The position numbers were made by a program, and so were the translations under genes. This document shows, piece by piece, positions 15,976-57,493 of a stretch of DNA of 64,000 nucleotides. The stretch's first letter is position 1. Each line of letters opens with the position of its first letter. This DNA is from Rozella allomycis CSF55. Its lineage: Eukaryota. Where the stretch lies: contig KE560959.1 in assembly GCA_000442015.1 (NCBI GenBank), positions 124,001-188,000 of the forward strand, read 5' to 3'. Under the pieces are notes generated by a model. That model worked only from the letters and a program-made list of their open reading frames with translations. It was not told the DNA's origin and ran no database searches.

Positions 15976-16353
15976 NCGTATGGGAGTCATTGGCTTTAGG
16001 CTATTATTAACTGGGAAAAACTCCGCCGAGGCCGTATGCTTACTGACACTTTTGGCCTGCATTATCCAATTTTTAATTTTTGTATTCTCCTCGACCTTCG
16101 GATACAATCTTCTATTAAACAAAGGCCTCTTTCAAACCATATGGTTCTACCATCTCCTCTCTAGCAATTCTAATATCATCAATATACAGCATTTCTCCGA
16201 CAGTCTTAATATCATCAACCAAAACTGTGACGGTCTTGTCAGCCTCTGCCAGGACTATTCTTTCTAACTTCAACTCTCTCTGACATTAGACAGGGGTTTG
16301 TTAACNCTTAGCTTTGGGGACCGTACAATGAAAGAATAGAATTGCTCAGCCAC

Positions 16354-18565: not shown

Positions 18566-19331
18566 TTATATGAAGATTATTTTCTTTGGATTTAGTGTAA
18601 AAATACATTCAAGGAGCTCGTCTTTTGAAATGTCAAAAATGCAGCGTGTTTTAACGTCCATGCCCATATCTATAGCGAGAGTATCGACTGTTTTAAAGAT
18701 ATCGTTTTCTATTCATTTAAATGATTCTTTTTTACCTAATTTTTGTAGTTTTAAAACTCTGTCAGAAGTTCCAACCCCAGTGGAGCCTTGAGTATTTTTA
18801 AGAAGCTCAATCTGTTCATTTGGTTTCAGATGTTTAGCGAAAAGCTTGTAAACTTTTAAATTACGCGAATTCTTAATATCCCTTTCTTAATAGCAAAGGA
18901 TCGTTACTTTATGATATCGCAGCATTTTCTCGCAGAGTATGACAGTAAAATCGTGTTGAGCGGTGATTTTTTATTTAGGAATTCAAAATCACTGCAATTT
19001 CTTTTATCTGATATTTCCACTATTTAAAAACATGGTGTATTCTTTACAATTATCAATTAAAGAATAGTTTTCAATCTCTGGGCGAGATTTTACATAAATT
19101 GATAATTTGTCTTTAAAGTATTCTTCTATTTCTTCAGATGTATATTCCTGCAGCTCTTGACCTACAAACAATGATTTTGATTTCTAGATGATTAAAAGAC
19201 CAGAAATTTACCTGATCAACAAGATTAATATACAAACATACCTTTTTAACAATTGCTTTTGAATCTTCATCTTTCAAAGCGCGCTTTTTCGTGAAAATAT
19301 GCTCAAAGTCACCGTCCAAAGAATCAGCCAT
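18566..19331 (-). CDS. CMS1: Cms1/CMSS1 90S pre-ribosome-associated protein
   Basis: MADSLDGDF start; KLFAKHLKPNEQIELL..GVGTSDRVLKL motif; ends IFDI..KKIIFI*. Confidence 0.75.
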
Positions 19332-19349: not shown

Positions 19350-21959
19350 ATGAAAAAATTTAAGAAAGAGGAATCTGAGCATTTAGATTCGAGTTTATTT
19401 TCATACTATAGAAAATGTGATGTTGTTTGTGATAGTGGAATTTGCACTGTTTCGTATTTGGGCAAATCTTTTTTCATTACGACTGTTGTTGGGAAATCGT
19501 TTCATGTTTATGAAGGATCCAAGCAGAAATTATTGTTTATTAGCAAACCGTTGAAGAATAAAATATCGGCCATGGCGTCTGTAGATGAGCATACGTTGGT
19601 AGCTTCCGGCAATGAGTTTCTTGTGTATTCTAGGGCTGATGTTGTTTCGTGCATTACTTTGGATGAGAGTATTGATGAAATATTGGTGTTGGGAGATTAT
19701 GTTTCATTGTTATCTAAAATGGAGAATTCACTGACTGTTGTNATGGAGAATGCACTGACTGTTGTACATTGGAGGCAAGATAAACAAGTTTTGGAAGATA
19801 TGAATGTAGTTTCAAAAATAAAGTTTGATAAAGAATTCCAAGCTTGTTGTCATATTCACCCAGATACTTATTTTAATAAAGTTTTAGTAGGTGGTAGGGA
19901 TGGACGAATTCAACTGTGGAATGTTAAGACAAGGTAATTAATGATAGTGGAATTGAAAAGAACATTAATATACGAGTTTCAAAAATACGAAAGAACTATT
20001 TGTAGTCTGGTTCAAACAACTGCACTGGATGTAGCAGCTGTTGGGTACATGGATGGCACAATTCAATTGATTCATTTAAAGAAAAATGTGCTTGTTGGTG
20101 AATATAAGCAACATGGTTCTGTCAATGCAATATCATTTAGAGAGTCTGATGTGAACATGCACATGATTTCAGTTTCAACAAATGGCCATATAACAGTTTG
20201 GGATTTAAATGAAATGAAGCAAGTTTACTTGAAAGACACTGGATTGGATTCTATTGGATTTTGTTCTTACATTAGAGGAACCAATTTAATTCTTGTAGCG
20301 TCAAAATTGAATGCGATTCAAGTAAATTCTAGTTTATGAATAAATGAAAGGTTTGGTCGTTTAACGATACGAGAAAAGATTTAACAATTTTGAAAGAGAG
20401 AAAAGGATTGTCAAGTTCAGCTTCATTTGTTAAATTTGTTGATAATAATTTGGTTTACACTGGAAATGAAAAGGGAGAATTGGAGCTCGTTCATATTTCA
20501 AGAGATTCTCACAATAGAATTTTCTCTAAAGGAAAAGAAAAGAATCTTAGCCTTTCAACGTTTTCTATTCCATCCACTTTACATAATGAGTGGGGTTGTT
20601 TAGCTGGATCAAGTTTAAAAGACAATAGCATCTCCATTTGGTCTCAACATAATAAAATTGTTTCAAAAGTCTATTTTGATAAACAAAAGGAAACAATTTC
20701 TGCTCTGGAAACTTCTCTTTGCTCAAACTTTTGTGCTTATGGAACATCTAAAGGAAGTTTGGTCTTGTTCAACCTCCAATCCAGTATTGTAAGGTGTAGA
20801 ATTCAAGGTATGTTTAACCAAAATTTATGAATTAGCACACAATGAAATAATCACTGGTGTTTTTATTGACGATACAAACCAATATGTTGGAACTGCTTCA
20901 CTTGATGGATTTGTGAAAATTTGGAAATTTAAAGACTTTTCTCTTTTGCATTCTATAAACATTGGTGCTTCAATTAATCTTATTTATAAGAAAAGAGAAT
21001 CATCTTTTCTTGCTGTATCTTGCGATGATTGTTCTATAAAGTTGATTGACTTGGATAATAAAAAAGTGGTGAGAACGTTCCTGGGTCCAAAGAAGCCAGT
21101 ATTGGCATTGGAAATATCAAACGATAATCGTCTTCTTTTAGCGTCTTCAACAGATTCCACTGTTTGTGTCTTTAACATTCCAAGTGGAAAGCAAGTTGAC
21201 AAGATGGTTTGCGAATTCACTCCAAAATCCATTTCAATTAGCCCTAACGATCTTTGCTTTTCTATTTCATATGTTGATGATTTGGGATTTCATCTTTTTA
21301 TGAACAAATCATTTTTTGAATCGGTTTCAACTTCATTACCTGCCATCGAATTCAATAACGCGGCATCCAGTGCAGAATTAATAGTTTCTGAAAATGAATC
21401 CAAATGGAGATCTTTAATAAATTTAGATACAATTAAAAAAAGAAACACGCCAAAAGAACCTCCAAAGAAACCAGAAAACGCTCCATTCTTTCTTTCGTCA
21501 GCTTCTTCAGTTCCTGTTATAGAAGATAAATCTGAGGGAGTTCCAATCTTATCTGATGAATTTCAATTCGATTATTTATTTTCATTAAGTCCAAGTAATT
21601 ATTTTAAAGTGTATTCAATAGATGATTTGATTAAAGAATTAGAAAATATGCCAATTTCACGCATTGACCTATTAATTATTCTTCTAGGGGAAAACAGAAT
21701 GAAATTTTTAAAAGCATTAATTCCTTGTTTAACCTCCAAGGCATCGTTTGATATGATCATGTCCATCTTGTCTAGATTTTTAGCGGTAAGTTTTGATATC
21801 TATAAAATATTTTAGATTCACGGCGAAAATATATTCCAAGATGCTGCAGATGAAGATCTAGATATTTTAGAAACAGTTTTATCTTCATTGGAAGGATCAT
21901 GGAACGCCAACGAAAATACCTTTCAAAGCTGTCTAAACTTGCTTTCAATGTTATGTTAA
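19350..21959 (+). CDS. UTP21: U3 snoRNA-associated WD40 protein Utp21/WDR36
   Basis: HPDTYFNKVLVG, LDVAAVGYMDGTI, WRSLINLDTIKKRNTPKEPPKKPENAPFFL; several short introns. Confidence 0.9.
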
Positions 21960-25302: not shown

Positions 25303-25706
25303 TTATTCAGCATCTACAGTTTCAGTTTGCAAACCTAATAACAAAAAAAACCAAAACGCTACCTTTAAAGCTAGCAACGGGAACCCAAGAGACATAAGTG
25401 TAGAACTGATCTTTCGAGTCTTCTTCTTCTGATCTCATTCTAGCCATGCGAACGCGGATACGAAGAGGAACGTTTTTGATACCGCGGGACCAGAGAGCGG
25501 TATTTAAGCTAGGATCAATGCGAACTTGTTTAGTTTTCATTTCCTTTTGAGCGAAAGCCTTTACAACCTTGATAGCACCTGGCGCACGTTTTTTGAATGA
25601 TCTGATTAAAGAGAAAAATGTGGGAATACTTGCCATGCAAATATTTGTGCATGTGGATTGTGTATTCGCGAGTAACTGGTTCAAGAGGCTTTTTTTCAAT
25701 GGCCAT
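25303..25706 (-). CDS. RPL31: 60S ribosomal protein eL31
   Basis: VTREYTIHMHK..SFKKRAPGAIK..VRIDPSLN..WSRGIKNVP.RIRVR; two introns. Confidence 0.95.
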
Positions 25707-25991
25707 TTTCGCAAGGGTCAGAATTTTCTTTCGGAAATTTCAAAATGGAAGTGAAAAATGGGAGTGAGAAAAGGAATTAAAGGAAAGAGCGTGAGAATGT
25801 AAGAAGATGTAAGATATGAATAAATTAAGTAGAAATATTTGAAACATCGGATAAAAAACTTACGTGAAAATTACAAGTCTCGCAGTGCTCGTTAAATCGG
25901 ACGGGGAGTTAATTATGGAATATAAACAAATTTCTTCACAATACAACTATTTTTTATGCTTTTATGTTAAATCGGATAATATTTTTAGTTC

Positions 25992-28900
25992 TCACAAACT
26001 TCTACNGGAAGCAAGAACGATAGCATCTTCAGAGTCATTAGAATCATCATCTGAGAGTGTGTAATTGACTTTTTTCTTGTTTCTTTTAGCTTTTGGTGAA
26101 AAGAAGAGAGAGGAAGCATTTCCAGAGTCTTTAAGAGCAGATGGTTTCTTTGGAGTGTCTGAAGGTTTTGATTTCTTTGGAGGAGAGCTATCAATTGAAT
26201 CTTCAGAGTCGGATATTCTGACTTGTTTTCTGCTAGAGAAGAATGAACTCTTTGCAGTAGCTGAAGCGCTTTTAGTACTAGTAGCAGTTGACGCACTTTT
26301 AGCAGTAGTAGCACTCTTAGCAGTAGAAGCACTCTTAGTAGTAGTCTTCTTTGCAGTACTCTTAGTGCTCTTCGTAGCTGTAGTACCAGTGTCTCCTTTT
26401 ATAGTGTCTCCTTTAATGGTGTCTTCTTTTATAGTGTCTTCTTTCATAGTATCACTCCTCTTCACATTACCCTTCTTCGCAGTACCCTTCTTCTTATCAG
26501 AAGTCTTTGGCTTTGAAATGGAAACTCTTTCAATCTTCTTTGCGAGTGAATTAACATTAGAAGAACCCAAAGCCAAATTTAATCTTTCTTCTAGACTGAG
26601 ATCTAAGCTGTAAGCGCTAGTTAGTTTATTATCAACAGGAGATGACCTAGACTCATCTTCATCATCAACGTCGTCATCGTCATCGTTAAGGTCGTCATCG
26701 TCAAGGACATCACTTTCCTCTTCTTCCTCTTTTTCATCTTCTTCATCTTCAACAATTTCTTGAACAACTTCTTCTTTAATGACTTGTTTCTTTTTTCTAG
26801 ATTTCTTTTCTTGAATGTTTAATTTAAAAGTGCTTGTAGTTTCAATTCCTTTATTGAGATTCTATCAGTAGAATAGATTTATTGTTACATTGTATTCTTG
26901 AACAAAATCATCTAAATCATCCAACCATAAATCCTTTGGTGTTTTTTCTAATAGAATTGACAATTCTTTTTCCTTGTTATTCTTTTCATTAATCAACTTT
27001 TCAACCTTTTCTTTTGTTAAATTCAACAATGGCATATTAAGCAAATAATCGAACCCTTTGATTAAAGTGATTTGAGTGAGAGTTACCTATGATTAATGTG
27101 GTTTAAAGCATTATTACCTAATGATTAATGTGGTTTAANTTTTCATCTTCTTCATCTTCAACAATTTCTTGAACAACTTCTTCTTTAATGACTTGTTTCT
27201 TTTTTCTAGATTTCTTTTCTTGAATGTTTAATTTAAAAGTGCTTGTAGTTTCAATTCCTTTATTGAGATTCTATCAGTAGAATAGATTTATTGTTACATT
27301 GTATTCTTGAACAAAATCATCTAAATCATCCAACCATAAATCCTTTGGTGTTTTTTCTAATAGAATTGACAATTCTTTTTCCTTGTTATTCTTTTCATTA
27401 ATCAACTTTTCAACCTTTTCTTTTGTTAAATTCAACAATGGCATATTAAGCAAATAATCGAACCCTTTGATTAATGTTTTGAGTGAGAGTTACCTAATGA
27501 TTAATGATTTAAAGCATTATTACCTATGATTACTAATACCTTCACTTATTACCTATGATTACTATAACCTTCACTGATTACCTTCCTTGTCATCCTTTTC
27601 ATAATCTTTGGATTGTAATTCCTTTTCAACATTAATCTTCAATTTATTCTTAATAACCAAAGTTTCATTAATCAATTCAAGAATAAATCTAGCCTTGTTT
27701 TCCAATCTAGACAGTTCTTTTAATAACTGATTAGAAAGATATTCTTTTCTCTTTTGATAAAAGATTAATCTTAGATTATAAAATTCTTTAATTATTTCTT
27801 CAACATTTAAATATTTCTTTAATCTTCCAAATGAATCAAAACAAACTAAATTCCCACAAGATAATGAAACACTCATTTTGAATTTCTTTTCTAATCCTTC
27901 CTTTTCAATTAAACTCAATTGTTCTCTTGTTAAATTGATCACAAATTTAATATTCTCATCCTTGTGGTATTCTTTAAATGAAAGAATTGTATTATTTTCA
28001 ATTAATGATTCTAAATATTCTTTATAATTTTGAGTCCAACATTTGATTGGCAATTCTGAGATTTCCAAACTAGTTTCATTAATCTTTTTAATGATTCCAT
28101 TTATTTTGTATTTATCTACATCTACTTGTTCTATAACCCCTTTAAACCCCTTGTACCATGGATGCATCTTTTCAATCTCTTTCCCATTAATCATTCTCTT
28201 TATATTCTCAACAAGATCAATTGGATTGTAATTAGGCACAAATGTACTCCATCCAGTCCCTATCCCTTCAGCTCCATTAATCAACGTCATGGGAATAATC
28301 GGTATATAATACTCGGGCTCTATATCCTGTCCATCTTCATTCAAATATTTCAACAAATTATCATCTTCTATTCTAAACAACTTTCTAGCCAATGGTGACA
28401 ACAATGTAAATATATATCTGGGGCTAGCATTATCCTTTCCTTTATGAATGTTAGATTATTGAATTACCTCCTTGAAATCTACTACCAAACTGTCCATTTG
28501 GCATCAACAAATTTATATTATTACTACCTTGATAGTAAAGAAATAAAGTGATTACCTTTAATGAGTTTCAAACAAAGTGATTACCTATTATGATATGCAT
28601 TTCAACTACTTTACCTTGATGAATTAAACTTCAACTACTTTACCTTGATGAATTAAACTCNATTAATAGTAAAGTAACAAAGTGATTACCTTGATGAATT
28701 AAACTTCAACTACTTTACCTTGATGAATTAAACTCTAATCACTTTACCTACAAAGTCTTGCGCCAAGTTGATAATCGTGCCACTAAGACTCACCTCCCCA
28801 TGATGATACGCTGTATGCTCACTCACATACCCAGACAACTGATTCACCTTCACTTCACTCTTCAAATTACGCTTGAAACACGCATAGATAATCTTTCTCT

Positions 28901-31900
28901 GTCCAGGCTTAAATCCATCAACCACACTCGGAATAGATCTAACATTATCTGCAACTGAAAATAATATCAATTCCTTGTTCACAAAATCTTCAACTTTAAT
29001 AGACTTTGTCTTGTGATCCATATACGTCCCTGGCTGGAACTTTCTCAACCACTCCTTTCTATCTTCAATCTTCTTCTTGCTAAACGCCATATCAACCATC
29101 TCTCTATCTCCTTCCTTTACTCCTGAAAATGGTATTCTATGTTCACTCATGGCCTTGAAATACTTGATAGCATCATCCTTTGTACTTGTTCCCAAACCCT
29201 ATTAAAGAGAGTGAAGGGTGAGATTACCTATTAAAGAGTTTAAAATTATTTTACCTATTATTTAATCTCATATCATGTTTTACCTAATATTTAATCTCTT
29301 AACTTACTTTACCTAGTATTTAATGTCTTAACTTACTTTACCTTGTAGTATTTGATTGTCCATCCTATAGTTAAGATTAACATGTCCACTTACCTTGCCC
29401 ATTGTTATTCTTACTCTTCCATTCTTCATACTCTGGAATTGTATAAAAACTTTCAACCTTGTTTCCTTTGGTACATTTCACTATCGGTGTAATAAATTCT
29501 TGTATAAACCCTGGTATCTTTAACAATGATGGCCAAAATTTATCAAACAAATTAATCAACAATCCCTTTATATGAGATCCATCATGATCCTAAATTGAAT
29601 TTAGTAATGCATGTTACCTATTGTTAATGCATTAGTTTAGGGTTACCTATTCTAAATGTACTATAATCATGCTTACCTATTGTTACTCTACTACAATTAT
29701 GCTTACCTATTGTTACTCNAACATTACCTATTATAGAGTTTAAACATGGCATTACCTATTATAGAGTTTAAAACTATTTTACCTAGTATTTAATGTCTTA
29801 ACATAATTTACCTTGTAGTATTTGATTGTCCATCCTATAGTTAAGATTAACATGTTCACTTACCTTGTCCATTGTTATTCTTACTCTTCCATTCTTCATA
29901 CTCTGGAATTGTATAAAAACTTTCAACCTTGTTTCCTTTGGTACATTTCACTATCGGTGTAATAAATTCTTGTATAAACCCTGGTATCTTTAACAATGAT
30001 GGCCAAAATTTATCAAACAAATTAATCAACAATCCCTTTATATGAGATCCATCATGATCCTAAATTGAAGTTAGTAATGCATGTTACCTAATTGTTAATC
30101 TACTACAATCATCGTTACCTATGGTTAATCTACTATAATCATGCTTACTTGATCAGTCATTATCATAACGTGCCCATATCGCAACTCACTCGCACTGGTA
30201 TAATTCTTGCCTTGCTGCAACCCTAAAATTCTTTTAATATTCTGAATTTCTTGATTCTCCAATATTTGCTTAGCAGATGCTTCTCTAACATTCAACAATT
30301 TCCCTCTCAATGGAAACACCCCAAAATAGTCTCTTCCAACTACAGACAACCCTTGCACTGCTAATGTCTTAGCTGAATCCCCTTCTGTCAATATCAATGT
30401 ACACTGCGATGAACTCTTCGTGCCAGCATAGTTCGCATCATCCAACTTTGGTATCCCACTAATCCTACTGGTCTTGTGCCCATCACTCTTCTTCAACATC
30501 TGATTCTGCTTCGCTTGCGCAACATTCAATATATTCTCAACAATCCCAGACTTCAACACCTTTCTCCACCTTCTTCAATCTTTACCTTTTTCATAAATTC
30601 TTCTCCAAGAATACATTTAGAACCAAACGACGATTGCTTCAATGTCATCGTCTCCTTTGTTTGCGAATCAAACGAGGGATTCTCTATCAAACAATTAATA
30701 AACAACGCCATCTGGTTCTTTATTTGAAATGGCTTCAGTGGGGCTGCCTTGTTCTTCTTCTTCGTCGCTTCAACCAACGCACCAACAATCTGATCAGCTA
30801 CATGCGCTACATGCGTTCCTCCCTTGCTAGTACAGATGGAATTCACGAACGATATCTAAACACTCCAACTCTGCATTCTTACTTGCTGGAATTGTCCCTC
30901 TGATATACAAAATCCAACCTCCCATCTGTCACTCTTTTCAAACAAAACAGTCGGCTTCACTCCATTCTCATCTTCCTTCACAAACTGATTCACATAGCTC
31001 TTAAAATCTTTAATCTTTATTCTCTCGCCATTCAAATAAACTTTCACATCCTTCACTACCCCAGCCATATCATACACTCGCTTCACAAACAACTTTTCTA
31101 CATCCTCATCAAACGTCTCCATTCCAAATCTCTTCAAATCTGGCTTAAACGTTATCTACTCATTCAAACTACCCATCTTTACCTTGGTAAAATCATCCTT
31201 GCTATAGTCTACAATCTTTGGCTGTCCAACTTCACTCATATTCTTCTTAAACACCTTTGCAGTCTCAGTTTCATTCTTACTTGTCTAAATTTCTTCTTTT
31301 TGCTAGAATCAGCAGTCTCAACAACAAACTCGGTAGAAAATATATTACACAACTTGGCGCCAAATCCATTTCTACCCCCAGTCACCTTTTTCTGCGAATC
31401 ATTATAATTAGAAGATGTCAACAAATGTCCAAATATCAACTCGGGCACATACACCTTTTCATCCGCATGAACCTCAATCGGTATCCCACGCCCATCATTC
31501 ATCACACTAATCACATTATTCTCTCTATCAATATCTACCCTTATCACCCCCATCCCAGGATCACGTTGCTACTACCACCCAAAAACAACTCTTACCTTGT
31601 TGTCAGCCGCATTCACCAGTATCTCATCAAAGATCTTATAAAATCCAGGCGTATACGTGATATTCTTATACACAAATTTTCCTTGCTCAACAATCCACAT
31701 CCCCTGGGTAATACTCTCCACTGACCCTATATACGTATCCGGACGCAGCAAAATATGCTCCAACTGTGTCTTTTTCTGATACACCTCCTCCACCGGTCGG
31801 TTGTCTCTTTTCTGCTGCAATGGCTTTTTCACACTCTTCTTCACAGGCTGTCTTATGCTTATCTTATTCTTACTGAAGCCGTAAACGATGACTCATAATC

Positions 31901-31906
31901 ACTCAT
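25992..31906 (-). CDS. TOP2: DNA topoisomerase II (assembly includes two duplicated exon blocks at N joins)
   Basis: YQKKTQLEHILLRPDTYIGS, GGRNGFGAK, TEGDSA, PLRGK, MTDQDHDGSH, YYKGLGTS, DGFKPGQRK, YHHGE, ASPRY, GIGTGWS. Confidence 0.97.
27140..27464. repeat. Direct duplicate of 26731-27055 (probable second haplotype at N join 27139)
   Basis: Apparently identical sequence at offset 409. Confidence 0.85.
27465..27581 (-). other. TOP2 intron made of 4 tandem unit introns (29+29+30+29 nt)
   Basis: Each unit GTAA...AG; removal joins DDKEG to FDYLLNMP. Confidence 0.9.
28528..28747 (-). other. TOP2 intron made of tandem unit introns (six complete 28-30 nt units plus two cut by the N at 28661)
   Basis: AG|GTAA junctions at unit spacing; removal joins QDFVG to SNNINLL. 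Confidence 0.88.
29199..29341 (-). other. TOP2 intron made of 5 tandem unit introns (29+29+29+27+29 nt)
   Basis: Removal joins IKYYK to GLGTS. Confidence 0.9.
29812..30059. repeat. Direct duplicate of 29342-29589 (probable second haplotype at N join 29719)
   Basis: Offset 470; two substitutions seen, one intronic and one synonymous. Confidence 0.85.
30060..30148 (-). other. TOP2 intron made of 3 tandem unit introns (30+31+28 nt)
   Basis: Removal joins MTDQ to DHDGSH. Confidence 0.9.
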
Positions 31907-32183
31907 TGTCGATTTGAGCGCCAAGTTTTTGCAAGGGTTTACAAACAGATTTTTAAAACCTGAATGGAATATCCTTCCAATAACACTCCTCTTCTTGAAT
32001 AAAATCATTCCAAAATATGCGACAAATGCAGTCACTTTGTACAGCCACTCAAAATTTAAATACACAAAATTGACTTTTCAAATATACGTAAATTAAAACA
32101 TTACTCGTTAATTTTTATTCTTATTTCTTATCTTATCCTTCAATCTTCATGTTAACAACCCCTGTCAAAACTTTTTTCCAAAT

Positions 32184-32772
32184 ATGCCACAAGACCAACA
32201 GCAAATTCCAGCAGATATCAAAGACGAAACTCTCGAAGAAGACAAGGAATTAGAAGCTATGAAATTACGCGTTAAAGAAATGGAAGAAGAAGCTGCCAAA
32301 CTTCGTGAAATGCAAGCTCAAGTGGAGCAGCAAATGAACATGTCTCTTGATTCTCGTAAATTTCATACCTTTAATTGTTCTAGTCGAGTCTAAAGAAGTA
32401 GTAGACAATCGCTCCATTTACGTCGGAAACGTACAGTTTATTCTGTGTTGAAATTAGGTTGACTATTCATCTACTCCAGAAGAATTACAAGCACATTTTC
32501 AAGCTTGCGGAACTATCAAAAGAGTCACCATCAATTGCGACAAGTTTACTGGGTCTCCAAAAGGATTTGCTTACGTGGAATTCGCTGACCCTGAACATGT
32601 TGCTAATGCTATGGCTCTAAATGAGTCACTTTTCAAAGGAAGACTTCTCAAAGTTTTGCCAAAGAGAACAAATATTCCAGGATTCAATAGAGGAAAATGG
32701 AGAGGTCGTGCAAGAGGCAGAGGTGGCTACAGAGGCCGTGGAAGAAGAGCAGCACATTTTGCCCCGTATTAA
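32184..32772 (+). CDS. PAB2: Nuclear poly(A)-binding protein PABPN1/Pab2
   Basis: [23 protein letters not shown] coiled coil, RRM ([18 protein letters not shown]), RG-rich tail ending FAPY. Confidence 0.93.
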
Positions 32773-54880: not shown

Positions 54881-57493
54881 TTATTGATGTTTGTTCAAAG
54901 GATCTCCACTTTTAATCATTGTTGACGACAACATGGAACCTGACATTTTCGTATGCGCTGCTATTTTATTTTGCCATAACTCTAAAACATTGACCCATTG
55001 TTGATATTCTTCTTGAACAGAAAATGTAACATCATAGCGACAATTTTCCACAATAATACTAAGTGCAGAGGTTTTCGCATTCTTTTGAATAGAAAAGTTC
55101 TTAATGAATTTCAAAAACAAAGAATGATTTCCAATCCCAAATGCCTCAAGTTTACTAAATTCAGTATTTCTTCTTAATGACAGAAAATGTATTGCATTCG
55201 TGTTTGGATCGAGGGCCATTACCATGCGTGATGTCTCACTGAAAAATGAAAGGCTTTTCTTGACTCTTACAGACACGTCACTCGTTATCTTATACGTTTT
55301 CTTCAACTCTGAGTCATTCTTTACATCAGTACTTTTAACAGCGACAACCGTTCCACTTTGACCTACCGTTTTCTTATCATGCCGAGTAACATAAATGTTA
55401 TACATTTTATGAAGAAACATACATACAATATTGAAAAAAGCTATGTATGTGATTGAGAGTACTTTAACAAGAAAGGTAGAAGTAAAGCCTAAACTATTAG
55501 ATGTCAAAATGGGTATTGTGAATATCATTACAATCGTCACATTGTAAACTGATAAGGAAATAGCTTTGGTTTCTTGAAACTTTGATGGGATATCTCTTGT
55601 TTTAAACGCCATTATCAAATTTAATGCCAAAATTAAACCTCCATAGGTCAAAATCAATCCTAACATCACTTCCTGCACCATAGAGTTTGAGCTTCTGCAA
55701 GTCCAATAGTATTCTTTTGTGCTCAAGTACTTCATAACATGTGGTTTCGGCCTATCAATAATATTCCATACAAGAGCAAATAAAACGTTGGGTAATGTCA
55801 TCAGTATACCTACCAAAGATACTTTTTTGTCTGTCCACTTAGATCCTTCGCCCGAATTAATAACATAAAATAATCGATATAGCCGGACCATTTTAGCGAA
55901 ACTAAACGAATAAAACAAAGAGAAGGAAAGAGTAAGAAGAAATGTATCAGCTATGCAAAATGTGTCATTTGGCTTTCCCGTCATTATCAATAATTGTATG
56001 AAGCCTAACGCAAGTCCAAAAAGGAGCACATAGCTAATCTTTACACTTACGCGAACTATAACAGGATTTTTTCGATTTAGGGCATAAAATATGAAAACCA
56101 AAAGAACAACTACAATACCAACTGCACCAAGTAAAACTGAAAGCTTGCCAACCACAGTAGAAAAATCAGAATATAAGGCAACTTCATTAGGATCAATGTA
56201 GTCTTTTGGCTTTATAGTAGATCCACCTGGATAATATATTGGTCTAATCGAATAGATGGTGCCTTGACTCCACGTGGCGGCTTCAAACGCTTCTCCATTT
56301 AAAGTATTTAAGATGCTATAGTCGCCAATCCTCTCACCATTAATGTCCAAAACAACTTTGCCTGTAGGCGTTATTAAATTGTCAAACATGAAGGTCTGTG
56401 GGACAATAAAGTCCGACTTGTACGTACCATTAATTAGACCTTGAACTGTATATGTTGAGTTAGATTTTAACACACGATCAATACCATAAGCAATCAAATC
56501 CAAGCAAGATGCGAAACTCATTGTGTACAAAGGTGGTTCTGTAGACGTATTGTTGAGCCGGAATGGTGACGATGAATTAAGTATACCAGAGACCCACGAA
56601 GTTTTCATTTCTTCATAAATGGGCCCTTGCCCTTCTTTTGCTACAAAGAATATAACGTTCTCCATTAATTCCTTTTCCTCGTTCGTTAACATATAGTAAC
56701 CAGCATATACACCGTCAGATATTATCCAAACATAGCCTTGTTCTAAGAGCCCTTTTTTCTTTGCTTGCTTCAAAACAGCTAAACAATCTTGTAAATACCC
56801 GAAATATAAGATGATTTTTGCGTCTGAATCCTTGACTAAATTAACTACGTTTTTAGGACCGCTTTCCAAATCTGAAGCGTAAAACGAAGTTCTAACCAAA
56901 ATATTAATTTCGTATGATTTCGCACTCTCTGTTAACTGATTTGCTAATGCTTGGCCATAATCATCATTGGTTCCAATAATAGCGATAGATCTCCATCTAT
57001 TCTCATGCACATAACTGGCCATTGCCGATGCTTGAAAAAGATCGCTGGGTATTGTTCTGAAAAAGTTTGGATATTGTTCTTTATCAGCAAGCGCTGGACT
57101 AGTTGAGGATCCGCAACATACTGGAAGGTCGAAATTCTGGGTTATTAATGACGTTATTATGGTCAAATAGGAAAATGATGAGCCTATAATCGCAGTAACT
57201 CTATCATTGTTATTGAATTCAAGTAAGTCGTTGATCAGATTCTTACGTGAGAAACCACAGTTTCGGTACACGAATTCCAATTTCGTATTGTTATCTATTA
57301 GACTATCGATTTGATTGATTTGATCTAAACGAAGGTATATGGAGTTGATTGCATCTACACATTCGGGACAAATCTCTTCATCGAATGGCATAGACACTCC
57401 GATTTTTATAACATTATTTCCATTAGGGTTTAAACATTTGATTAATACCTGCAAAGATGAAAATAAAAGCAAAATTCTGGACAAGTAATGCAT
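54881..57493 (-). CDS. Class C (GABA-B-like) GPCR: Venus flytrap plus 7TM
   Basis: Signal-like MHYLSRILLLF; STSPALADKEQYPNFFRTIPSD, DDYGQ; YPGGSTIKPKD; FAKMVRLYRLF; AFKTRDIPSKFQETKAI; intronless. Confidence 0.92.
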   Translation of the reverse strand: MHYLSRILLLFSSLQVLIKCLNPNGNNVIKIGVSMPFDEEICPECVDAINSIYLRLDQINQIDSLIDNNTKLEFVYRNCGFSRKNLINDLLEFNNNDRVTAIIGSSFSYLTIITSLITQNFDLPVCCGSSTSPALADKEQYPNFFRTIPSDLFQASAMASYVHENRWRSIAIIGTNDDYGQALANQLTESAKSYEINILVRTSFYASDLESGPKNVVNLVKDSDAKIILYFGYLQDCLAVLKQAKKKGLLEQGYVWIISDGVYAGYYMLTNEEKELMENVIFFVAKEGQGPIYEEMKTSWVSGILNSSSPFRLNNTSTEPPLYTMSFASCLDLIAYGIDRVLKSNSTYTVQGLINGTYKSDFIVPQTFMFDNLITPTGKVVLDINGERIGDYSILNTLNGEAFEAATWSQGTIYSIRPIYYPGGSTIKPKDYIDPNEVALYSDFSTVVGKLSVLLGAVGIVVVLLVFIFYALNRKNPVIVRVSVKISYVLLFGLALGFIQLLIMTGKPNDTFCIADTFLLTLSFSLFYSFSFAKMVRLYRLFYVINSGEGSKWTDKKVSLVGILMTLPNVLFALVWNIIDRPKPHVMKYLSTKEYYWTCRSSNSMVQEVMLGLILTYGGLILALNLIMAFKTRDIPSKFQETKAISLSVYNVTIVMIFTIPILTSNSLGFTSTFLVKVLSITYIAFFNIVCMFLHKMYNIYVTRHDKKTVGQSGTVVAVKSTDVKNDSELKKTYKITSDVSVRVKKSLSFFSETSRMVMALDPNTNAIHFLSLRRNTEFSKLEAFGIGNHSLFLKFIKNFSIQKNAKTSALSIIVENCRYDVTFSVQEEYQQWVNVLELWQNKIAAHTKMSGSMLSSTMIKSGDPLNKHQ

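Follow-up and report, generated by a model that had tools for sequence, protein, structure and literature searches.

What are the long introns of TOP2, the DNA topoisomerase II gene in a 64,000-nucleotide (64-kb) stretch of the Rozella allomycis CSF55 genome, and how could they be spliced where ordinary introns measure mostly 25–29 nucleotides (nt)? The stretch (contig KE560959.1, positions 124,001 to 188,000, forward strand) is called the window below, and all positions are those of the window. A preliminary description had read four TOP2 introns as exact arrays of complete mini-introns, joined with no exon between them. Splitting of the minus strand at every AG|GTA gives the same result. With a probability of roughly 60%, and judging from sequence, we suggest that entire mini-introns were duplicated in tandem to give these hypervariable arrays, that selection maintains the splice signals inside them, and that splicing probably takes out one unit after another by way of zero-length exons.

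The gene lies on the minus strand at 25995–31906 and has 13 intron positions, with two exon blocks duplicated as assembled; its structure was drawn from Pfam domains, a tblastn exon map and the open frame. The exon translations match HATPase_c, Toprim, TOPRIM_C and DNA_topoisoIV (PF02518, PF01751, PF16898 and PF00521), the ATPase, Toprim and DNA-cleavage (topoIV subunit A-like) domains all fall within one continuous frame, and the exons align in the expected order along fungal and animal Top2 proteins. Arrays occupy four of the 13 intron positions. Removing them whole, together with nine single introns of 26, 27, 26, 27, 27, 26, 29, 28 and 27 nt, yielded an uninterrupted frame of 1189 codons and, as the preliminary description had claimed, restored Top2 motifs; the conserved junctions read ...MIMTDQ|DHDGSH..., ...KYYK|GLGTS..., ...AQDFVG|SNNINLL... 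and ...DKEG|FDYLL.... Conversely, 40 of the 41 contiguous subsets of retained units result in an in-frame stop, the exception being one 30-nt unit of array B on its own. AG|GTA splitting and the frame model also place a single 29-nt intron at 29365–29393 (minus strand), followed by a 23-nt micro-exon at 29342–29364, and a single 28-nt intron at 28440–28467 (minus strand). As separate observations on the gene, six single introns in its 5′ part are purine- and G-rich, the array units being A/T-rich instead, and the stretch encoding the C-terminal tail (26262–26493, minus strand) contains tandem repeats of 15–27 nt that encode S/T/A/K-rich peptide repeats.

Each array is a head-to-tail series of 27–31-nt units that start with GTAA, end with (T/A)AG and meet as AG|GTAA. 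All 27 complete units have the GTAA start and the AG end, with T at position −3 in 20 and A in 7, and the arrays range from three to at least six units and from 88 to 175 nt across versions, all on the minus strand. Between ...MIMTDQ and DHDGSH... lies array D, in phase 0, whose version D2 (30060–30148) has three units (30+31+28 = 89 nt); version D1 (29590–29718) consists of a truncated unit and then 30+30+29+28 nt. Array C, also in phase 0, has five units in version C1 (29199–29341; 29+29+29+27+29 = 143 nt), and of version C2, inside 29720–30059, the start only is present (29+27+28 nt, then an N). Array A, in phase 1, has four units in version A2 (27465–27581; 29+29+30+29 = 117 nt), and version A1 (27056–27139) comprises an N at 27139, a truncated unit and then 31+31 nt; A1 and A2 differ by substitutions and small insertions or deletions. 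Array B as assembled (28528–28747; 220 nt, phase 1) reads 29, 29, a segment of 46 including an N, then 29, 30, 29 and 28 nt. For the three ungapped arrays, the sums of 117, 143 and 89 nt are those given before. Tandem Repeats Finder reported periods of 29–30 at 27517–27583, 28601–28749, 29247–29343, 29643–29718 and 30083–30142.

Such chains depart strongly from chance. All seven chains with at least two AG|GTA links at 24–34-nt spacing lie within 27493–30148 on the minus strand; a remnant of A1 apart, the rest of the window has single links only, 7 of them on the plus and 11 on the minus strand. When the 64-kb window was shuffled 100 times with dinucleotides preserved, GTA starts followed by at least two links averaged 0.03 per shuffle and never exceeded 1, whereas the real sequence has 19; starts with at least three links, of which the real sequence has 11, did not occur in the shuffles.

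Part of what had been read as one gene structure in the span 27056–30148 turns out to be an assembly mosaic, made up of two haplotype versions. Three of the nine single Ns in the window lie inside TOP2 arrays (27139, 28661 and 29719), and at those three only are there exact repeats between the flanks of the N (335, 50 and 201 nt). The N at 29719, an unstranded single-N gap, joins the truncated C2 to the truncated D1. Positions 26731–27065 are identical to 27140–27474 (a 335-nt exact repeat, offset 409), and 29308–29599 are identical to 29778–30069 apart from a short break (offset 470), so that arrays A, C and D each occur in the span in two versions, and two exon blocks are present in duplicate. 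One assembly-made second copy, of the exon downstream of array A, lies at 27140–27464 (minus strand), recognized by the exact repeat and its single-copy depth; the other, at 29720–30059 (minus strand) and likewise an exact repeat, comprises exon 6, the 29-nt intron, the 23-nt micro-exon and the start of array C. Because the exon 6 block adds 219 coding nt (a 196-nt exon and the 23-nt micro-exon), a multiple of three, the frame stays open, yet a real duplication would make the protein repeat about 73 residues of its conserved core. In contigs of the public sequencing run X1, depth over the duplicated stretches is 302–313, compared with 307–320 over unique exons, and the other copy of the exon 6 block has a depth of 313, compared with 320. 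Because these depths equal those of unique exons, the duplicated stretches are single-copy in the reads and the duplicated exon blocks are assembly artefacts.

Within the arrays, X1 contigs are shallower (146.5, 201.6, 213.6 and 252, or 0.47–0.82 of flank depth), and paired variants occur at part depth; 29600 T>G, for instance, has 146.5 of 273.5. This is most simply explained if the assembly set two haplotype versions of arrays A, C and D next to each other. Array B is a chimera as written. In X1, a contig of roughly half depth passes straight from 28529 to 28662, so that the 220 nt of the array combine a part of a longer allele (28528–28660, minus strand; units of 28, 29, 30, 29, 29... nt) with a 3-unit allele (28662–28747, minus strand). 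A second assembly also broke at the arrays, given that the public partial DNA topoisomerase II of R. allomycis CSF55 derives from a 2103-nt contig ending at arrays C and A. This 459-residue fragment, 99% identical to exon 9, starts exactly after array C, ends reading into array A and joins across array B as modelled. The remaining single Ns (15976, 16306, 16501, 19742, 24587 and 26006) have flanks that are not duplicated; that at 19742 is inside a short tandem repeat, that at 15976 is just past the end of one and that at 26006 interrupts the low-complexity C-terminal tail of TOP2.

Scaffold-free contigs of four public DNA runs (X1, X3, X5 and X7) were placed on 27140–29718. These contigs keep the single 28-nt intron at 28440–28467, which identifies the runs as DNA, not cDNA. 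Contigs from the four runs cross three to five consecutive units and the flanking exon with 0–1 mismatches: all five C1 units and both flanks are present in single contigs of X1 and X3 (29190–29366, 0 mismatches), four B units are covered over 28500–28640 (0 mismatches), and D1 is covered by X1 and X3 contigs over 29570–29698 (1 mismatch, at reduced depth). Copy number varies between alleles and samples, both between the versions in the assembly and through whole-unit gains and losses across runs. X3 has an extra 30-nt unit at 27489 in array A; X5 has an extra 28-nt unit at 28575 in array B, also found in X3 as a back-joint; and X1 has a 132-nt skip, at about half depth, that gives the 3-unit form of array B. 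The shortest allele among the runs still has three units. Moreover, loose contig ends of X7 match the 3-unit D2 version, X1 has a further variant unit adjoining the last D unit, and the variant letters of A1 recur at part depth in X1, X3 and X5. These data confirm that the arrays are genuine DNA, variable by whole units, which the assembly exaggerates and scrambles. They agree with the preliminary description in that arrays change by gain and loss of whole units, and the persistence of the arrays in independent, scaffold-free contigs leaves assembly concatenation unsupported as their sole cause. As an aside on these contigs, ends in X3 at 27474 and 28243 run into sequence containing ATAACTTCGTATA, which we take to be loxP-like, that is, the linker of a circularization-based mate-pair library and not genome sequence.

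To what extent do internal units look like introns? We aligned 26 distinct units within their own arrays and compared the signal columns (G1, T2, A3, A4, A−2 and G−1 in each of the four arrays) with the interior columns, a comparison between units and between two versions rather than between species. The 24 signal columns are all invariant, whereas 69 of the 98 interior columns vary, with at least 97 changes; interior pairwise identity averages 0.55–0.62 with a minimum of 0.30. The earlier statement that units diverge internally and keep both splice signals therefore stands. At the interior rate, the Poisson chance of zero changes in the signal columns is about 5e-11, a rough value, given the relatedness of the units and the uncertain alignment of those that have diverged. 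There is no circularity in the test: in the ungapped arrays the unit lengths add up to the full intron, and hence no decayed boundary has left a unit of double length. A splice-site matrix built from 48 candidate single introns gave the units 10.3 ± 2.0 bits (minimum 6.1), the single introns themselves 10.0 ± 2.1 bits (leave-one-out) and 2362 GT..AG decoys of 25–31 nt in the window 3.7 ± 3.7 bits.

Units resemble the members of their own array (similarity score 3.7, 79 pairs) more than those of other arrays (−1.5, 272 pairs), and no unit copy was found outside TOP2 in the 64-kb window, where the best matches were 14 nt long (E = 0.004). The resemblance within arrays and the lack of copies elsewhere in the window point to local duplication rather than a dispersed element. 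A search of 25500–32500 against Rfam returned one sub-threshold match, sR52, outside the arrays (22.3 bits against a gathering score of 50, E = 0.26), and the unit sequences give no sign of an RNA gene. Predicted folds of six array stretches had z-scores of −2.0, 0.18, −2.07, 0.19, −0.43 and 0.01 and thus suggest no convincing structure. Separately, positions 3–12 of the first unit of array B form a perfect 10-nt complement to the beginning of the GTAATCACTTT-type units within that array, and these complementary ends pair in the predicted fold of the 3-unit B allele (z = −2.07).

The length of ordinary introns was estimated outside TOP2 by a screen for GTA..AG segments that join two open frames of at least 50 codons and break the frame if retained. 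The screen yielded 59 donors, 48 of which had a solution of 24–29 nt (one of 24 nt, 3 of 25, 14 of 26, 11 of 27, 12 of 28 and 7 of 29); none had a solution of 30–33 nt, and 11 had solutions of 34–40 nt only. Likewise, GTAA..TAG spacing outside TOP2 peaks at 26, 27 and 28 nt (16, 17 and 21 cases), whereas each of the remaining bins between 15 and 120 has 2–11. A narrow band of lengths thus holds the ordinary introns of the window, as previously noted, although that band is mostly 25–29 nt with a mode of 26–28 and not about 26–31 nt. Two introns of R. allomycis, the S23 introns, have been described as short (~30 nt; PMC6349667), and a density of 2.5 introns per kb has been given for the species (PMC8476143).

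A model that would account for these observations starts with a resident mini-intron at each of four TOP2 positions, duplicated in tandem, whole and in register, to give minisatellite-like arrays. Each unit is a complete intron, with a GTAA 5′ end, an A/T-rich branch-like stretch and a (T/A)AG 3′ end, and neighbouring units abut as AG|GTAA, leaving a zero-length exon. The first duplication may have been aided by the AG|G(TA) microhomology at both ends of the intron, most evident at array B with its two AG|GTA junctions; once two copies were present, further in-register duplication would be easy. Fast gain and loss of whole units would make alleles and libraries differ, which would in turn break the assembly and set two versions side by side. 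Pairing the GT of any unit with the AG of any downstream unit would leave an in-register array beside the exon, so that every order of removal would end in one mRNA and every copy would be tolerated as long as its own signals were intact. Selection would then retain the internal signals while interiors drift. Single units would be recognized by intron definition and removed one (or a few) per round until the exons meet, as intron-definition behaviour predicts where equally strong sites sit 29 nt apart. The anatomy, the polymorphism, the conservation of signals and the splice-site quality of the units are observed; the tandem duplication and, above all, the unit-wise order of splicing we infer. 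In its strongest form, which we hold to be about an even bet, the model has a spliceosome so tightly tuned to ~27–30 nt that longer introns exist only as chains of mini-introns; splicing a single TOP2 junction would then take as many as six or more rounds in succession, each through a zero-length exon, and every copy would be held splice-competent by selection even as the chains lengthen and shorten in the manner of minisatellites. That the spliceosome could not remove longer introns is suggested here by the length distribution in one 64-kb window, the part of the genome examined.

Several observations weigh against this model. Array units average 29.1 nt and single introns 27.1 nt (Mann–Whitney P = 1.6e-8), and 8 of 27 units are 30–31 nt long compared with none of 48 single introns; this excess of ~2 nt lies outside what the preliminary description's model predicts, and strict length tuning may make some units poor substrates. 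Fast turnover would mean that many units are young, in which case the conservation of their signals would partly reflect recent copying rather than selection. The four runs may share a strain with the assembly and are independent as libraries and assemblies, not as isolates. Finally, the first and last units pair weakly in the predicted folds of A2 and of the 3-unit B allele (z about −2, two of the six folds), a contact that could favour one-step removal by looping out the interior. One-step removal is indeed an alternative in its own right: the arrays would be neutral intronic minisatellites, spliced from the first GT to the last branch point and AG, their internal signals being unused young leftovers. 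Near-identity among many units, copy-number differences between versions, the excess length of units over typical single introns and the folds of A2, the 3-unit B allele and D, in which first and last units pair and the intron could in effect be shorter, would all fit such an account. We nevertheless regard it as unlikely, because interiors have diverged to the extent given above without a single change in the signal columns or a decayed boundary, because the internal sites match those of genuine introns in strength and, being closer together than the outer sites, would be favoured under intron definition, and because four of the six folds are no better than shuffles.

The other explanations concern where the units come from and what they are for. 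Were the arrays assembler products, made of concatenated reads or haplotypes, with ordinary single introns at these places in the genome, one would expect what is seen in the three N gaps with duplicated flanks, in the joining of two alleles in array B and in the 2103-nt contig behind the public protein; the contigs from four runs that cross consecutive units into exon, in which even the shortest allele has three units, and the fact that concatenating one intron cannot yield diverged units make this explanation barely credible. It is also very improbable that the units are copies of a mobile intron-generating (introner-like) element inserting next to AG|GT sites. Although some neighbouring units are very dissimilar (interior identity down to 0.30) and a B unit has one 14-nt match elsewhere in the window, full-length copies are lacking outside TOP2 in the 64 kb, units are closer to their own array than to the others, and neither terminal repeats nor target duplications were seen in the one window searched. 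A role as regulators of TOP2, for example by delaying splicing or throttling expression through nonsense-mediated decay, would be compatible with unit-by-unit removal and could explain a feature that our model leaves aside, namely the concentration of arrays in a single gene: they occupy 4 of 13 TOP2 positions and none of 45 other candidate introns (Fisher P = 0.0017; the 45 candidates were copied by hand, the programmatic list has 48, and a possible tandem at 19184–19241 would make one elsewhere). The stops that nearly all retained units introduce would serve such a role, but they are expected anyway in A/T-rich units with a GTAA start and a TAG end, and a tuned length is hard to square with copy numbers that vary freely from version to version; we consider a regulatory function distinctly unlikely.

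If removal does proceed unit by unit, TOP2 would offer a natural experiment on intron definition, with one junction spliced three to six times in a row by a spliceosome specialized for ~27-nt introns and working through zero-length exons. Minimum splice-site spacing, the order of unit removal and the upper limit of intron length could be tested there, and intron length would grow in quanta of one intron. Under tight tuning, the arrays would be the densest natural case of recursive splicing and a previously undescribed route of intron growth in a genome of ultra-short introns. Arrays of this kind also break short-read assemblies and gene models, here with three gaps, duplicated exons and a chimeric array, and similar loci in other genomes with tiny introns may be hidden likewise.

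Elsewhere in the window, the possible two-unit tandem at 19184–19241 (minus strand), in a gene encoding ...KSLFVGQELQEYTSEEIEEYF..., consists of 30 nt (GTATG..CAG) and 28 nt (GTAAA..TAG), and both units carry the motif TTAATC. It is ambiguous from its sequence, as the first unit is a multiple of three and free of stops and could instead encode the 10 residues VCLYINLVDQ. Other candidate introns of 37–204 nt look like chance GT..AG pairs or are intergenic, and none is an array. A 900-codon open reading frame for a class-C receptor matches the R. allomycis CSF55 protein P0121 at 834 of 862 aligned positions, the differences being 4 substitutions and two gaps totalling 24 residues that are treated as introns in the public model. 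Together with the 99% identity of exon 9 to the public TOP2 fragment, this match assigns the window to R. allomycis or a near-identical relative. P0121 lacks the 16 and 8 residues encoded at 55013–55060 and about 57375–57398 (both minus strand); in the DNA these residues correspond to stop-free GT..AG segments of 48 and 24 nt, multiples of three, which may be either coding sequence removed by the public model or frame-neutral introns.

Metagenome contigs were scanned for three TAG|GTAA boundaries 27–31 nt apart, which gave at least 119 loci. Among the matches listed, most are by inspection satellites or GGTA-rich repeats, and a screen for flanking frames of at least 60 codons left 32 entries in 10 loci, all in phase 1, with lengths that are multiples of three in 31 of the 32, as expected of in-frame coding repeats. 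No analogue of the mini-intron arrays was found among the at least 119 loci listed, not every one of which was inspected singly, and a search of metagenome contigs with exon 9 for relatives gave 181 pattern matches, none of them confirmed. The one entry with another length, in locus L030 (9501–9890, plus strand), is no analogue either: its 31-nt repeat, present about 13 times, is of an exon end with a 5′ splice site, so that a row of AG|GTAAGG sites opens a longer intron. Its upstream exon encodes ...FHEIPHELG, in which the motif HEIPHELG is one that we take, unconfirmed by domain search, to be ZIP-transporter-like. As a further observation, seven A/T-rich contigs (24–31% GC; L029, L043, L052, L058, L006, L103 and L113) share a 30–31-nt repeat of type GTAATAGAGATCCGTGGGTAATAGTTGGTAG. 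In five of the seven (L043, L052, L058, L103 and L113) it starts after a conserved lead-in, ...TAATATTAT|GTATATAATTATTATGATAATAG...; L029 has a variant lead-in and L006 is shown from mid-array, and the repeats have no flanking reading frames.

The literature searched, which did not cover the organism's genome paper (James et al. 2013) and its supplements, contained no published tandem mini-intron arrays, in line with the preliminary description's view that this organization had not been described. The closest parallel in splicing is the recursive splicing of long Drosophila introns through zero-nucleotide exons, or ratchet points (bioRxiv 10.1101/006163; PMC8605326). In both cases a 3′ splice site stands directly against a 5′ splice site with no exon between them (AG|GTAAG in flies, (T/A)AG|GTAA in TOP2), a new 5′ site abuts the upstream exon after one splice, and the junction in TOP2 is conserved above its surroundings in the comparison of units and two versions. 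Fly ratchet points, however, are isolated sites in introns of tens of kilobases whose segments are not complete short introns in a repeat, whereas the TOP2 arrays span 88–175 nt in segments of 27–31 nt, with sites that would stem from duplication of whole introns; stepwise use has been demonstrated in flies, whereas the steps in TOP2 (~29 nt, up to six in a row) are a prediction from DNA. In Schizosaccharomyces pombe, spliceosome profiling identified a zero-length exon in the 336-nt intron of SPNCRNA.445 (bioRxiv 10.1101/226894), which likewise sets an internal 3′ splice site immediately beside a 5′ splice site within a short fungal intron. The two instances given there are not tandem repeats and show no copy-number variation, and they come from spliceosome-bound RNA, whereas ours come from DNA. 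A narrow band of intron lengths near 25–30 nt is shared with genomes of ultra-short introns, among them Paramecium and Nyctotherus, with introns of about 25 nt (PMC5014332), and myxozoans (PMC13644364); the main text of the last makes no mention of tandem, recursive or adjacent introns.

Other known arrangements resemble the arrays in their DNA. Introner-like families differ in having dispersed, near-identical copies, none of which were found here; no unit had a match of more than 15 nt outside TOP2 in the 64-kb window. In the stwintrons of filamentous fungi, one intron interrupts a splice signal of another and thereby forces the order of excision. The TOP2 arrays share with them the removal of one intron and then another at one place, but their units abut with all GTAA and AG signals intact before splicing, so that any order would work. 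Human introns are reported, by Zhuo and colleagues in 2007, to have arisen from tandem arrays whose repeats carry splice sites. These and intronic minisatellites have in common with TOP2 the head-to-tail repeats of tens of bases, polymorphic copy number and splice signals in each repeat, and the TOP2 arrays, with head-to-tail units in the 10–100 bp range and varying copy number, are minisatellites (variable-number tandem repeats) in that sense. The L030 locus belongs with the human kind, unlike the TOP2 arrays, in which the unit is exactly one complete, functional-looking intron of species-typical size at an existing intron position. Splicing through zero-length exons and minisatellites within introns are thus both already known, and what is new here is an array in which one unit equals one complete intron.

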